This document shows, piece by piece, positions 46,512-52,540 of a stretch of 64,000 nucleotides of DNA. The position numbers and the translations under genes were made by a program. The first letter of the stretch is position 1; every line of letters starts with the position of its first letter. Origin of the DNA: an uncultured Clostridium sp. (GTDB lineage: Bacteria; Bacillota; Clostridia; TANB77; CAG-508); NCBI GenBank assembly GCA_947087745.1, contig CAMUDX010000003.1, positions 1,412-65,411 of the forward strand, in the 5' to 3' direction. The notes under the pieces were generated by a model that saw only the letters and a program-made list of their open reading frames with translations, had not been told where the DNA came from and did no database searches.

Positions 46512-46880
46512 TTATATAAATATTATGCTTTTTTTACCTTTTGATCCTATTCCATTTATTCCTTTTTTTCCATCTCTTAATTCTTTTTCAAAGTCCTCAA
46601 TTGTTATATATACATGTTCATCTGTTGTAGCAACCTTTCTTGCTAGTATTAGTGGATCCAAAAAATCTATTAGTATTCTTGCTGGTGATGAAGCGAAGTT
46701 AGCTCCTGCTAATATTATTGCTTCAAAATAGCTTTGGCATGCACCTGCAAATATTACTAATCCTTTATTTTTTTCTGCATCGTATCTTCTTGCTTCTTTA
46801 ACTGTTTCTATAAAATGTCTCGAATTTTTATAATTATATATGTCATTATAGTTCGTTTCTTTCTTTATCATCCCATCATG
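46512..46880 (-). CDS. yabG: sporulation peptidase YabG, 3' (C-terminal) gene segment
   Basis: ..NYKNSRHFIETVKEARRYD..LVIFAGACQSYFEAIILAGANFASSPARILIDFLDP matches the C-terminal half of YabG. The frame is open back to HDG at the CATGATG junction. Confidence 0.8.
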   Translation of the reverse strand, partial: HDGMIKKETNYNDIYNYKNSRHFIETVKEARRYDAEKNKGLVIFAGACQSYFEAIILAGANFASSPARILIDFLDPLILARKVATTDEHVYITIEDFEKELRDGKKGINGIGSKGKKSIIFI

Positions 46881-46950
46881 TCATGTGTGTTATTGTACCA
46901 GAATTTTTGTATATTTATATTTCAAATTAGTAGACTAATTTGTTACTACT

Positions 46951-48687
46951 TTATTTAATATTCCACTTTATTGAAATTTTTCTACTATTTAAGTCTTCAT
47001 CATAGCAATCAATATAAACTTCTGAAATAAATTCATCTATTGTCTTTTTGTCTAATTCTTTTATATTAAAGCTTTCTGTTATGTTTTTTGATATTGTATT
47101 CTTATGTCTTAGATTCTGTAAATCATTTTCTATTTGTTTAAGTCTTATTTTCATATTTTTTATATCTATCTTTGTCTTACTTTTTATTATTAGGAATTCT
47201 TCTGCATCAATTATCTCATTTACCTTATCTTCATATATTACTGCTAAAGTCTTTTCTTTCTTTAATATATTTTTATTTATACTAGATTTCTCTTTTTCTA
47301 AGTCTTCTTCTCTTTCAAAAAATATATTTGAATTTAATTCGTAGTATTTTTTCTCTACTAAAACTTTATCATAATATTTGTGAATTTGCTGATTTATCTC
47401 CCTTAATATTATTTCATATAATTCTTCTTCTTTTATACTTTTTTTATTATTGCATAACTCTTGTGTTGCTTCATATCTGTTACCACATAACCAATATTTA
47501 TAATCCTTATTCTTTGTCTTTTTTGCATTCCTATAAAATTTGTGTTTACAACAGCTACATTTTATTTTGTCTGAGAAAATTGATATTTCACCACTTGCCT
47601 TTTCTTTTACCCTCTTTTTTTTTCCAAATCTTGAGTTAACAATATTCCATGTTTCTTTATCTATTATAGGATTATGACAATATGGTACTATTATTCTCTC
47701 TTCTTTTGATATTCTTCTTTGTTTTTTATTTTTATAGCTTATGGTCTCATTTTTGTGTTGTACTAATGTACCTAAATATACTTCATTTTTTAGTATTTGA
47801 TATATTGTATTTGTTCTCCACACATATATTGAATTGGTATCTAAATTTACTTTATAGTTATTATAGTTGGCATTTTTCTCATGTTTGTATATACTTGGTA
47901 TTGGAATGTTATTTTTGTTTAAATAGTTGCATATTTGTGTTGCTCCTTTTCCATTTAAAAACATTACAAATATCTTTCTTACTATTCTTGCAGATTCTTC
48001 ATCTATTATTAAATGGTATTTGTCCTTTGGGTCTTTTTTATATCCATATGGTGCAAATGCCCCTGTAAATAGCCCATTTGATTGTTTGTTTTTTATTATT
48101 GCTCTTATGTTTATTGATTGATCTTCTACTTGCCACTCATTTACTAGTCCATTAATTTGTCTTGTTTTTTTATTCCCTAATAGTGATGTGTCTGTACTAT
48201 CTACTAATCCCACAAATCGTACATTCCAATTAATAAATTCATTGTGTAGATATTTTTCAATCATTTCCATGCTTCTTGAAAATCTTGATTGACTTTTGCA
48301 TAATACAATTTCGGTTTTTCCTTGTTCACAATATTTTAATAGCTTTTTCCATTCTGGTCTATTATCATTTGTTCCTGATATTCCTTCTTCACAAAATATA
48401 GCTGAAACCTTCCATTCTCTTTTTTCACATTCATCTAGTAATATTAATAATTGATTTTTTATACTTTTGCTTACATTTCCATCTATTACATCTCCATCTT
48501 CTACTGATAATCTTATGTATAAACTTACTCTACATTTGATATTGTCTTCTTCTTTTTCTTTTTTACTGTCTTCTTTTGCTATATTTAATTGCAGTAGTTC
48601 TTTTATGTTTTCTGATATATATTCAATGTTTTCTATGTCTAAATGATTTTTTATTTTTTGTACTTCACTATCTTCACTTATTTTCAT
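46951..48687 (-). CDS. large serine recombinase (SpoIVCA/phage integrase-like)
   Basis: The resolvase catalytic region RVSLYIRLSVEDGD..SKSIKNQ is followed by the recombinase domain, a zinc ribbon (CSCCKHKF..CGNRY) and a long coiled-coil tail. Confidence 0.9.
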   Translation of the reverse strand: MKISEDSEVQKIKNHLDIENIEYISENIKELLQLNIAKEDSKKEKEEDNIKCRVSLYIRLSVEDGDVIDGNVSKSIKNQLLILLDECEKREWKVSAIFCEEGISGTNDNRPEWKKLLKYCEQGKTEIVLCKSQSRFSRSMEMIEKYLHNEFINWNVRFVGLVDSTDTSLLGNKKTRQINGLVNEWQVEDQSINIRAIIKNKQSNGLFTGAFAPYGYKKDPKDKYHLIIDEESARIVRKIFVMFLNGKGATQICNYLNKNNIPIPSIYKHEKNANYNNYKVNLDTNSIYVWRTNTIYQILKNEVYLGTLVQHKNETISYKNKKQRRISKEERIIVPYCHNPIIDKETWNIVNSRFGKKKRVKEKASGEISIFSDKIKCSCCKHKFYRNAKKTKNKDYKYWLCGNRYEATQELCNNKKSIKEEELYEIILREINQQIHKYYDKVLVEKKYYELNSNIFFEREEDLEKEKSSINKNILKKEKTLAVIYEDKVNEIIDAEEFLIIKSKTKIDIKNMKIRLKQIENDLQNLRHKNTISKNITESFNIKELDKKTIDEFISEVYIDCYDEDLNSRKISIKWNIK

Positions 48688-48790
48688 TGTTTTTCATTAT
48701 CCTTGCTATTTTTTTACATATGATTTCTTTTGTTTCTTTATCATTTATGCTCTTTGGGTAAATGTGTTCTATGATATATTGGATTTTCAT
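48674..48790 (-). CDS. 38-aa ORF overlapping the recombinase start (candidate accessory/directionality factor)
   Basis: GGAGGAAAAGTG RBS, then MKIQYIIEHIYPKSINDKETKEIICKKIARIMKNNENK. Its stop overlaps the recombinase ATG region. It is too short for the ORF track. Confidence 0.3.
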   Translation of the reverse strand: MKIQYIIEHIYPKSINDKETKEIICKKIARIMKNNENK

Positions 48791-51457: not shown

Positions 51458-51995
51458 ATTTATATTCCTCCTCTTTTATAAGTTTTTCTAAGTTCTTTCT
51501 TGCTCTATGGATTAATACTTTTACACTTGATTCTGTCTTTTTTAATATATGTCCTATTTCTTTATAACTTAATTCTTCTATATCTGCTAGATATATAGCA
51601 TTTTGGTATTCTATTTTCAGTTTTTTAATACATTTTTTTAGATTATCTACTCTTTCATTTTTAAATACTTTTTCTTCTAATTCATTTAAATCTTCATATT
51701 GCATCTCATCTAGTTTTACTATTTTCTTTTCTCTTTTGATATAGTTGAGTGCTTTTGATTTTGCTATTGTATATAAATATGTTTTTAATGAGTATTCAAA
51801 TTTGTAGATTCTTTTGTTCACTAATATATATACAAAAACATCTTGTGCTAAATCTTCTGCTATATCTATACTTTTAACATATCCTTGTATAAAATATATT
51901 ATTGTATCTTTATGCCTAATTACTATTTCTTCAAAGCTATTCTTATTTCCTAATAGAAACTCTTTATATAGCTGTTTGTCTGTTTTTTCTTCCAT
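51447..51995 (-). CDS. ECF-type RNA polymerase sigma-70 family factor
   Basis: Region 2 (DLAQDVFVYIL) and region 4 HTH (LSYKEIGHILKKTESSVKVLIHRARKNL); 182 aa. Confidence 0.85.
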   Translation of the reverse strand: MEEKTDKQLYKEFLLGNKNSFEEIVIRHKDTIIYFIQGYVKSIDIAEDLAQDVFVYILVNKRIYKFEYSLKTYLYTIAKSKALNYIKREKKIVKLDEMQYEDLNELEEKVFKNERVDNLKKCIKKLKIEYQNAIYLADIEELSYKEIGHILKKTESSVKVLIHRARKNLEKLIKEEEYKYEN

Positions 51996-52086
51996 CTTTT
52001 TTCCACCTTTCTATATCTTATACAATTATACATCATAAATAGTTACACTTAAAATAGTTTTTTATATTTTCTTGTATAACTTATCA

Positions 52087-52540
52087 CATCATGCCCTGTT
52101 ATGATTAATATATCTGGATTATAATAATTCAATAATTTATATACTACCTTTGGTTGCCTATTTTCTGGTACATTTCTGACTATTGCCCTTAATCCCAATT
52201 TTTTGTAATATCTTGCTGATTTTTCACTATATCTCTTGTCTCCATCTAAGTGCAATATTAATCCTGTTTGTATCTTTTTTTGTATTCTGTACTCTTTTTC
52301 AGTTATAAAATTTATATTTTTTGTTTCTTTATCTAGTTTCTCTATATCTTTTTTTATTTTACTTTTTTCTGCTAATACTAAATCTTCCAATGGTGCATCT
52401 GCTTGTAGTCTTATTGCTATTCCCTTTAATATTGCTATTTGTTTACCATTTGTTAATTTTATTATTTTTTCTATTACAAATAATGTATCTCCTTGATGGG
52501 ATTTTCGTACAACATAGTCTCCTTTTTTGACTTTTTGCAT
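52087..52540 (-). CDS. yabG: sporulation peptidase YabG, 5' (N-terminal) gene segment
   Basis: MQKVKKGDYVVRKSHQGDTLFVIEKI..LILHLDGD..YYNPDILIITGHD matches the YabG N-terminal half. After GHD the frame runs 12 unrelated codons into the element and stops at 52049. Confidence 0.8.

Follow-up and report, generated by a model that had tools for sequence, protein, structure and literature searches.

A compact, non-phage recombinase element interrupts the sporulation protease gene yabG in uncultured gut Clostridia

Can a gene that has been cut in two by a mobile element still be in use? The question is raised by yabG in an uncultured Clostridium (assembly GCA_947087745.1, contig CAMUDX010000003.1), where the two halves of the gene are separated by a 5,213-bp element. 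The element has five genes, all on the same strand as yabG (the minus strand), and one of them encodes a large serine recombinase (LSR). We analyzed a 64-kb stretch of this contig ("the window"), which is 27.5% G+C and otherwise holds housekeeping genes. yabG is a sporulation-signature gene of the sigmaK regulon (PMC10681294). The original prediction, made from the sequence of the window, was that yabG is interrupted by an LSR element of the skin, SPbeta, or gin type. The collinear fusion of the two halves, empty sites in relatives, other relatives with an element at the same site, and purifying selection on yabG all support that prediction.

Our answer is that the element, which lies in the TGHDG codons of yabG, is probably excised during development, and that its excision in the mother cell would restore the gene. 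The timing and the cell type we infer from a footprint that resembles a sigmaE or sigmaK promoter and from analogy with known elements.

The interrupted gene and its attachment sites

In the integrated state, the 5' segment of yabG runs on past the junction to a stop at 52049. The resulting open reading frame (ORF; 52540 to 52049, minus strand) encodes residues 1-151 of YabG, ending in NPDILIITGHD, and then a 12-residue read-through tail, VISYTRKYKKLF. The 3' frame (46880 to 46512, minus strand) starts with DGMIKKETNYN, includes FAGACQSYFE, and continues as far as the C-terminus of YabG. We looked for a ribosome-binding site (RBS) ahead of the 3' fragment and none is present. The original prediction had the coordinates and the shared strand of both sets of codons right (Table 1). 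Joining the halves across the heptamer CATCATG gives, as it had stated, an uninterrupted frame, with a length of 271 amino acids instead of the 270 that it gave. The fused protein aligns to Pfam's Peptidase_U57 in a single stretch (positions 1-275 of 280, E = 1e-83), so the two halves are collinear with a single YabG, as had been proposed. Against NCBIfam's spore_yabG, the fused protein scores 239 bits, which is under that model's strict cut-off of 270.

In Clostridioides difficile, the activity of YabG requires His161, Asp162, and Cys207, which 96% of family members conserve; two of these, the His and the Cys, correspond to the catalytic dyad of the Bacillus subtilis protein (PMC10681294). 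By homology (PMC10681294), TGHD in the window corresponds to His161 and Asp162, and the Cys in FAGACQSY corresponds to Cys207. The element cuts through the CheY-like fold at its middle, leaving the catalytic His and Asp in the 5' fragment and the Cys in the 3' fragment.

Table 1. Features of the interrupted yabG locus (positions in the window).
Feature	Coordinates	Strand	Description
yabG 5' segment	52087..52540	-	SH3-like domain, linker, and start of CheY-like domain; ends at catalytic His150-Asp151
yabG 3' segment	46512..46880	-	Residues 150-271; catalytic Cys in FAGACQSY
attL (yabG 5' / element junction)	52062..52118	.	Core CATCATG at 52087-52093; element arm TTATAC(A/C)AGAA
attR (element / yabG 3' junction)	46849..46905	.	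Core CATCATG at 46874-46880; element arm TTCTGGTA(C/T)AA
Large serine recombinase (578 aa)	46951..48687	-	Pfam Resolvase, Recombinase, and Zn_ribbon_recom, all above cut-offs; gene ends 70 nt from left boundary
orf38 (38 aa)	48674..48790	-	MKIQYIIEHIY..ICKKIARIMK..; previously unannotated; strong RBS; 14-nt overlap with LSR start
Promoter-like footprint	48809..48837	-	TCATAAT-N13-AATATGAT(A); ends about 5 nt before orf38 RBS
Stem-loop after Spo0A_C stop	48850..48886	-	15-bp stem from sequence, 16 pairs in predicted fold; -28.6 kcal/mol, z = -7.2
Receiver-less Spo0A paralog (184 aa)	48913..49467	-	Heptad-rich, acidic N-terminus and Spo0A C-terminal DNA-binding domain
sigmaA-type promoter of Spo0A_C gene	49514..49542	-	TTGACT-17-TG-TATAAT, 11/12 matches
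Membrane protein (633 aa)	49556..51457	-	Pfam Beta_propel, E = 1.7e-153; 11-nt overlap with sigma gene stop
Extracytoplasmic function (ECF)-type sigma factor (182 aa)	51447..51995	-	Pfam Sigma70_r2 and Sigma70_r4_2; NCBIfam sigma70-ECF superfamily above cut-off
yabG upstream promoter-like region	52575..52605	-	CAC-N17-AATATAATA (52575-52603), conserved in close relatives (upstream alignment)

The heptamer CATCATG is present on the plus strand at both boundaries, just where it had been placed, and has only four copies in this orientation in the 64 kb. TTATCA was said to precede each boundary copy. At the right boundary it abuts the heptamer, but at the left boundary the two are separated by 3 nt (TTATCA-TCC-CATCATG). 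The element arm of attR is an inverted repeat of the element arm of attL, and this conserved inverted pair at the ends of the element makes up the attP arms, TTCTGGTATAA ... TTATACCAGAA. The predicted attB is ..ATCATAACAGGGCATGATGGGATGATAAAGAAAG.. and the predicted attP is ..TTCTGGTACAATAACACACATGACATGATGTGATAAGTTATACAAGAAAAT... Judging from these sequences, the anatomy of the sites is as expected for an LSR.

Across the family of related elements described below, every readable junction has the form ACAGGRCATG/ATGG, which is the T-G-H-D-G codons of yabG, and the halves of yabG are in frame across all of the junctions that we read. The common core of attL and attR narrows to ACATG in two of the relatives (L084 and L089). 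In the window, attB and attP are both most symmetric around the first CA of CATGATG. Crossover would take place at a central dinucleotide within ACATG, most likely the CA. Few nucleotide stretches of yabG vary as little as the TGHDG site, so a single attB can serve divergent hosts.

In B. subtilis, the consensus for sigmaE promoters is roughly KMATAWW-13/14-CATACAMT and the consensus for sigmaK promoters is AC-16/17-CATAnnnTA. More distant relatives have a clear CAC-N16/17-CATAnnnTA at the position of the promoter-like region upstream of yabG. The same stretch of the window can also be read as a sigmaA-like promoter, GTCACA-18-TATAAT, according to a scan for sigma-70 promoters. The original prediction had pointed to a different sigmaK-like -10 box, CATAAAATA at 52585-52593. 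This box is present, within the spacer of CAC-N17-AATATAATA, but there is no AC at the right spacing from it, and it is not conserved in four relatives (L081, L082, L084, and L001). Its resemblance to a sigmaK -10 box is probably coincidental.

The genes around yabG are conserved: veg lies downstream of it, and the gene for a small RelA/SpoT synthetase lies upstream. In the window, this single-domain alarmone synthetase (213 aa; 52717-53358, minus strand) is directly upstream of yabG. A RelA/SpoT-type gene is kept at this position in L081, L082, L175, and L176, and spoVG lies farther upstream.

Empty sites, occupied sites, and selection on yabG

We used the fused protein as a query against one genome per species and kept the best 80 matches. 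yabG is contiguous in 79 of these 80 loci. With this background, and with natural empty sites that have the predicted junction (see below), the arrangement in the window goes well past what chance would give. Interrupted copies of yabG from more distant species are out-ranked in a scan of this kind, and prevalence is not derivable from it. The original prediction had suggested that close relatives might have an uninterrupted yabG. Two do (L001 and L175), and both have the predicted attB. L001 is from a sister species, is syntenic with the window, and encodes a YabG that is 84% identical; the sequences that flank the element in the window abut in L001, where they overlap by 13 bp at the predicted junction.

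L175 is a closer match to the predicted product of excision. A search of a protein collection with the fused query found a contiguous 271-aa YabG that is 98% identical (P0149), and its contig, L175, has the gene order RelA_SpoT - yabG - veg. Of 87 bases at the junction in L175, 86 agree with the attB that is predicted from the window. Another contig, L059 (from the metagenome-assembled genome JAAWFD01), carries the same element as the window, with 91-94% nucleotide identity and the same junctions. The flanks of the element in L059 are 99.94% (left) and 99.36% (right) identical to L175. With one site empty and the other occupied at 99.4-99.9% identity, the two alleles coexist at the strain level and the event is precise to the base. 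We also looked for the element in the sample with the empty site. All indexed occurrences of the exact LSR of L059 are in samples other than the one that L175 came from, so L175 need not be an excision product and may be a strain that is free of the element.

The occupied state is found in at least 12 independent assemblies, with related recombinases that are 53-87% identical and with insertion into the same T-G-H-D-G codons. (Homologues of the recombinase number in the thousands, and we took their contexts from look-ups of exact proteins.) Samples with the occupied locus include those behind GCA_022794615.1, SRR11195288, SRR11195275, and SRR33727317. L081, with an LSR that is 84% identical to the window's, has the same five-gene architecture. 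Otherwise the genes that accompany orf38 (a small gene that overlaps the start of the LSR gene) and the LSR vary. Two kinds of element, in L082 and L083 (73% identical) and in L084 (67% identical), carry only a Spo0A_C gene and are about 3 kb. The elements in L085 and L086 (about 59% identical) carry a sortase, those in L087 and L088 (about 57% identical) carry insertion sequence fragments and PemK, and those in L089 and L090 (53% identical) carry two glycosyltransferases. For all of these loci, L081 to L090, the location in yabG was confirmed with a hidden Markov model (HMM). In L085 to L088, only the 3' fragment of yabG is within the contig, and the junction that was read is the attR-side one alone.

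More broadly, 7 of the 8 relatives of the LSR with at least 53% identity are in yabG (the exception is P0024), and those with at most 47% identity are outside yabG. A scan of metagenomes for relatives of the LSR returned 79 loci, all at most 56% identical, and none of these is flanked by yabG. The yabG-occupying family is apparently widespread, being present in many uncultured gut Clostridia. None of the relatives that we compared keeps the halves of yabG as separate genes, an arrangement that the original prediction had also considered.

If yabG were never reassembled in carriers, low ratios of nonsynonymous to synonymous divergence (dN/dS) would not be expected in both of its halves. Between the window and L081, which are both interrupted, dN/dS is 0.10 for the 5' half and 0.02 for the 3' half (dS 0.25-0.39). 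Between the window and L084, also both interrupted, dN/dS is 0.27 and 0.15, respectively (dS 0.50-0.69). These values are similar to those between the interrupted gene in the window and the intact gene in L001 (0.25 for the 5' half and 0.07 for the 3' half, with dS 0.40-0.57). In other words, both halves of yabG are under strong purifying selection in the carriers, and the gene is still in use.

The recombination module and the explanations for the split gene

The end of the LSR gene is within the element, 70 nt from the left boundary, in agreement with the original description. The protein has the catalytic serine (Ser61, in a YIRLS motif), a four-Cys zinc ribbon, and a heptad-rich coiled coil at its C-terminus, and in an alignment of the family it retains every invariant residue. 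Before the resolvase domain there is an N-terminal extension of about 50 residues (SE..RIK..LD...L.YVS.NIK.LL; columns 35-95 of alignment A1), which is specific to the family, has no match in Pfam, and includes an invariant Tyr23 and Ser25. Many LSRs of the family also have a LysM domain (PF01476, E = 6e-13) inserted into the recombinase domain, an odd feature for a protein that recombines DNA. This insert (columns ~335-395 of A1) is found in P0005, P0007 (residues 313-355), P0015, P0021, P0024, P0030, and others, and is missing from the LSR of the window and from its nearest relatives (P0001-P0004, P0010, and P0011).

orf38 is directly upstream of every LSR of the family that we examined, including two that are not in yabG (L170 and L174). 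Its homologues have 38-50 codons and a common motif, ..Y.IE.I....S..E.K..IC.KIA..I.., and it is under purifying selection, with dN/dS of 0.1-0.6, including some pairs with dS above 1. The 38-aa protein has no match in Pfam, and a HMMER search of the whole library with it gave just 3 matches, the query being too short for this to inform. Small, unrelated proteins act as the recombination directionality factor (RDF) for SpoIVCA, SprA, CD1231, and GirC (PMC5025042, PMC5595907, and supplement figure S1 of PMC10747680). orf38 is tightly coupled to the LSR whatever the target or the cargo, and so, by analogy with those proteins, we propose it as the best candidate for the RDF.

The promoter-like footprint ahead of orf38 is kept in 7-9 elements whose flanking DNA has otherwise diverged. 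It looks like a mother-cell promoter, of the sigmaE or sigmaK type, when set beside the consensus sequences of B. subtilis. Within the window the motif shows no enrichment (5 observed, 2.5 expected), and the sigma-70 scan found no sigmaA-like promoter for orf38 and the LSR. Between the footprint and the Spo0A_C gene is a stem-loop, whose stem is preserved, with different sequences, in L082, L084, and L059. Its predicted fold suggests that it is a terminator, which likely shields the operon of orf38 and the LSR from the sigmaA-driven Spo0A_C gene.

The wider family of LSRs has other targets. In 29 of the 79 metagenome loci (within L103-L167), LSRs that are 37-43% identical to the window's lie 10-60 nt upstream of a fragment, without a start codon, that encodes Amidase_3 and four LysM domains. 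The Amidase_3 match begins at position 6 of the Pfam model (for example, in L149 at 11603-12955). The junction there, ..CC(T/C)GCACATGGWGG.., corresponds to the H-G-G codons of a GHGG motif and is nearly the core that is found in yabG (GGRCATGATGG). Going by these sequences, one LSR family seems to include two sub-clades whose targets are His codons of two different enzymes. The best NCBIfam match of the amidase is CwlD, at a score far under the cut-off, which does not establish a role in sporulation.

Other members of the family are next to a truncated C-terminal fragment of a ComEC-like metallo-beta-lactamase (L096, 2068-2679, and L097) or next to a cytidylate-kinase-like fragment that starts at position 5 of the profile (L092, 10504-11103). 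With LSRs beside these truncated non-sporulation genes, insertion into coding sequences seems to be a general habit of the family. In L170, a complete attP-like palindrome at 11975-12035, TTGGTATAA-N10-CACATGACAG-N6-TTATACCAA, follows the gene of the LSR P0042. The same contig has FtsK/SpoIIIE and Rep-like genes and a second recombinase beside an Amidase_3 gene. It could be a related element in an unintegrated or tandem arrangement, or in one like that of an integrative and conjugative element.

We propose that in vegetative cells and in the forespore, the element would stay integrated and yabG would be inactive. In the mother cell of a sporulating cell, the sigmaE/K-like promoter would drive a two-gene operon of orf38 and the LSR, whose products would recombine attL with attR, releasing a circle with attP and leaving an in-frame yabG with attB. 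The rebuilt gene would be expressed from its own promoter region (52575-52605), and YabG would process proteins of the coat and the cortex. The circle would be lost with the mother cell, and the element would survive in the genome of the forespore. The cargo genes would be accessory, outside of the recombination machinery.

Several findings weigh against this proposal. The more distant LSRs of the family target non-sporulation genes, and P0024, a close relative (55% identical to the window's LSR), is located outside yabG. The strain with the empty site, L175, may never have acquired the element or may have lost it permanently. If orf38 encodes the RDF and its transcription is always tied to that of the LSR gene, then integration into a new host, which would be RDF-free, is left unexplained. 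As for the footprint ahead of orf38, its -10 box begins with A instead of C and its two boxes form a partial inverted repeat (TCATA..TATGA), so it is possible that the footprint is an operator rather than a promoter. Finally, the 3' half of yabG is frameshifted in L085 (3763-4117) and L086 (3706-4060), where HMM positions 158-202 and 202-276 are in different frames. This may mean that yabG is decaying in that lineage, or that the two samples share an error of assembly. Taken at face value, it implies that the restoration of yabG is not kept in every lineage.

Some of these findings would fit the main rival explanation, an ordinary integrative element that has no developmental role. The conserved His-Asp codons would then merely be its attB, its excision would be rare and independent of sporulation, leading to transfer or loss, and the carriers would effectively be yabG mutants or would rely on rare excision. 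Such an element would account for the relatives of the LSR in the ComEC-like, cytidylate-kinase-like, and Amidase_3 fragments, and the recurrence of the core, as CATGRWGG, on the His codon of another enzyme suggests that targeting is driven by sequence. The frameshifts in L085 and L086 and the presence of both occupied and empty alleles at the strain level point the same way. We nevertheless think that this explanation is unlikely, because both halves of yabG are under purifying selection among carriers, with dS up to about 0.7, and are in frame at all of the junctions. Also, the LSR operon has a conserved mother-cell-like footprint and no sigmaA-like promoter and is apparently shielded by a terminator, and the well-studied elements of such architecture in mother-cell genes are all excised developmentally (PMC5595907, PMC5025042, PMC10747680).

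Alternatively, the element might be fixed and immobile, with yabG either dead, so that its halves are relics, or working in two pieces, through a pair of polypeptides that come together. In favor of this, the 5' fragment forms a complete ORF that has a promoter and an RBS, and the 3' fragment starts near an in-frame ATG. Against it, the 3' fragment lacks an RBS, and the break is at the middle of the CheY-like fold, with catalytic residues on either side (PMC10681294). A pseudogene is not compatible with dN/dS of 0.02-0.3. And a precise empty site in a strain that is 99.4-99.9% identical implies that the element was mobile very recently; its LSR and both of its att sites are intact. Thus, we consider a dead or two-piece yabG to be very improbable. 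Although the window and most of its relatives are from metagenome assemblies, a chimera or other assembly artefact is refuted: at least 12 independent assemblies, which stem from different projects, have the same junctions, and their sequences diverge together.

Cargo genes and comparison with known elements

Besides the developmental excision that we favor, the element raises the question of what its cargo does. The 633-aa protein has a short cytoplasmic segment at its N-terminus, one hydrophobic span, and an extracellular beta-propeller. Given the order and the overlap of the genes, it is a putative cognate anti-sigma factor or sensor for the ECF sigma factor. This pair of genes is missing from the minimal elements (L082 and L084).

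The 184-aa protein matches Pfam's Spo0A_C (E = 8e-32) and positions 129-259 of 262 of NCBIfam's spore_0_A, with 128 bits against a cut-off of 200. Neither Pfam nor NCBIfam gives a match to Response_reg, and without a receiver domain this is a paralog, not Spo0A itself. The gene is 35-38% G+C, as compared with 22-28% around it, and is compositionally foreign. The Spo0A_C proteins are 54-56% identical between elements whose LSRs are 84-87% identical. The window's protein has RAIKSA in place of the conserved RAIRHA of Spo0A, and its first helices are closest to those of P0124 and P0125, which are 255-aa proteins with two tandem Spo0A_C domains and no receiver. Spo0A_C is confined to the sub-clade that is nearest to the window, so it is dispensable for recombination in the wider family. 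The Spo0A box TGTCGAA occurs 0 times in the element and once in the window, which is the chance level, so there is no support for regulation of the element by the Spo0A_C protein via canonical 0A boxes.

We speculate that a receiver-less Spo0A_C protein that is driven vegetatively could mimic or compete with Spo0A. A bolder and rather doubtful idea is that orf38 represents a new and unusually small family of RDFs, common to a whole radiation of LSRs that target catalytic-His codons (TGHDG of YabG and GHGG of an Amidase_3), and that the Spo0A_C protein, together with the ECF sigma factor and its partner, biases the host towards sporulation. If so, sporulation would be the path that gives the element vertical transmission and harmless excision.

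Whatever the cargo does, the Spo0A domain within it suggests a link between a mobile element and the control of sporulation. The three-gene minimal form (about 3 kb, in L082 and L084), with its candidate 38-aa RDF, would be a tractable system for studying the directionality of LSRs. The nearly identical core on a His codon of two enzymes offers a natural example of how an integrase chooses and switches its target. Also, a split yabG is easily miscalled as a pseudogene or as a gene loss when sporulation genes are tallied in metagenome-assembled genomes.

Intervening elements in sporulation genes are a classic form of programmed DNA rearrangement, but few have been characterized, and nearly all of those are from cultured Bacillus and Clostridioides. 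vfbin in spoVFB and vrin in spoVR, both of them mother-cell genes, are prophages or prophage-like, and are excised by serine recombinases during sporulation. SPbeta in spsM (SprA/SprB), also a mother-cell gene, is described as a prophage that is excised by a serine recombinase during sporulation (PMC4191935, PMC5499854), with a mechanism that involves an LSR and a small RDF (PMC5499854). SPbeta, vfbin, and vrin are large, are derived from phages, and are from Bacillales, while the element in the window is 5.2 kb and has no phage genes. We found no phage-type match in Pfam or NCBIfam for any of its five genes, which led us to reject a prophage with structural genes, of the yin type (see below). 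It has no DNA match in a plasmid collection, the closest integrase in a phage collection is less than 29% identical, and IMG/VR has 5 weak relatives. With no meaningful match from phages or plasmids, an origin as a prophage remnant or a plasmid is unsupported.

The original prediction left it open whether an element in yabG had already been described. One has: yin, a Caudoviricetes-like prophage of about 50 kb in yabG of Clostridium botulinum V73, with a 14-bp repeat (Douillard et al. 2023, PMC10747680). Its authors reported no other insertion in yabG in public data (PMC10747680). Like the element in the window, yin interrupts yabG, has an LSR at one end, and is flanked by direct repeats, and its excision, which was shown by PCR, restores yabG and yields a circle; the same products are predicted here. 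But yin is a different element at another position. From the qPCR primers that span it, the att site of yin would be about 35-75 codons downstream of TGHDG, close to the catalytic Cys or beyond it (..GAC.. to ..LDP..). The recombinase of yin adjoins the 5' fragment of yabG, while the LSR in the window adjoins the 3' fragment; the proposed RDF of yin is a different protein from orf38; and there is no Spo0A-like or ECF sigma gene in the gene table for yin. The element in the window is compact, is not a phage, and is distinct from yin, so it is a second kind of element that interrupts yabG. The yin prophage was reported to bring earlier entry into sporulation (PMC10747680), which a bias towards sporulation from the unrelated element in the window, if real, would echo.

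skinCd, in sigK of C. difficile (Serrano et al. 2016, PMC5025042), shares a clostridial host and the combination of an LSR (CD1231) with a small RDF (CD1234). The RDF of skinCd is expressed from a promoter that depends on sigmaE and SpoIIID, which confines excision to the mother cell (PMC5025042). However, the target of skinCd is sigK, its recombinase is constitutive (sigmaA), and its RDF alone is developmental, whereas orf38 and the LSR gene seem to share a single operon with one mother-cell-like promoter. In this respect, the layout in the window is nearer to B. subtilis spoIVCA, vfbin, and gin (as summarized in PMC5595907).

gin, which interrupts gerE in Bacillus cereus strain ATCC 10987 (Abe et al. 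2017, PMC5595907), is the closest in architecture and in presumed regulation. It too is not a phage, it interrupts a late mother-cell gene, it has a short core within an imperfect inverted repeat, and it has an LSR (GirC) and a small directionality factor (GirX), both of which are expressed specifically in sporulation (PMC5595907). It differs in having a host from the Bacilli, gerE as its target, and three recombinase genes, and GirX is unrelated to orf38 in sequence, so far as the missing Pfam match of orf38 tells. What the element in the window adds to these known systems is a compact, non-phage family in yabG of uncultured gut Clostridia, with a constant site at the His-Asp codons and varying cargo.

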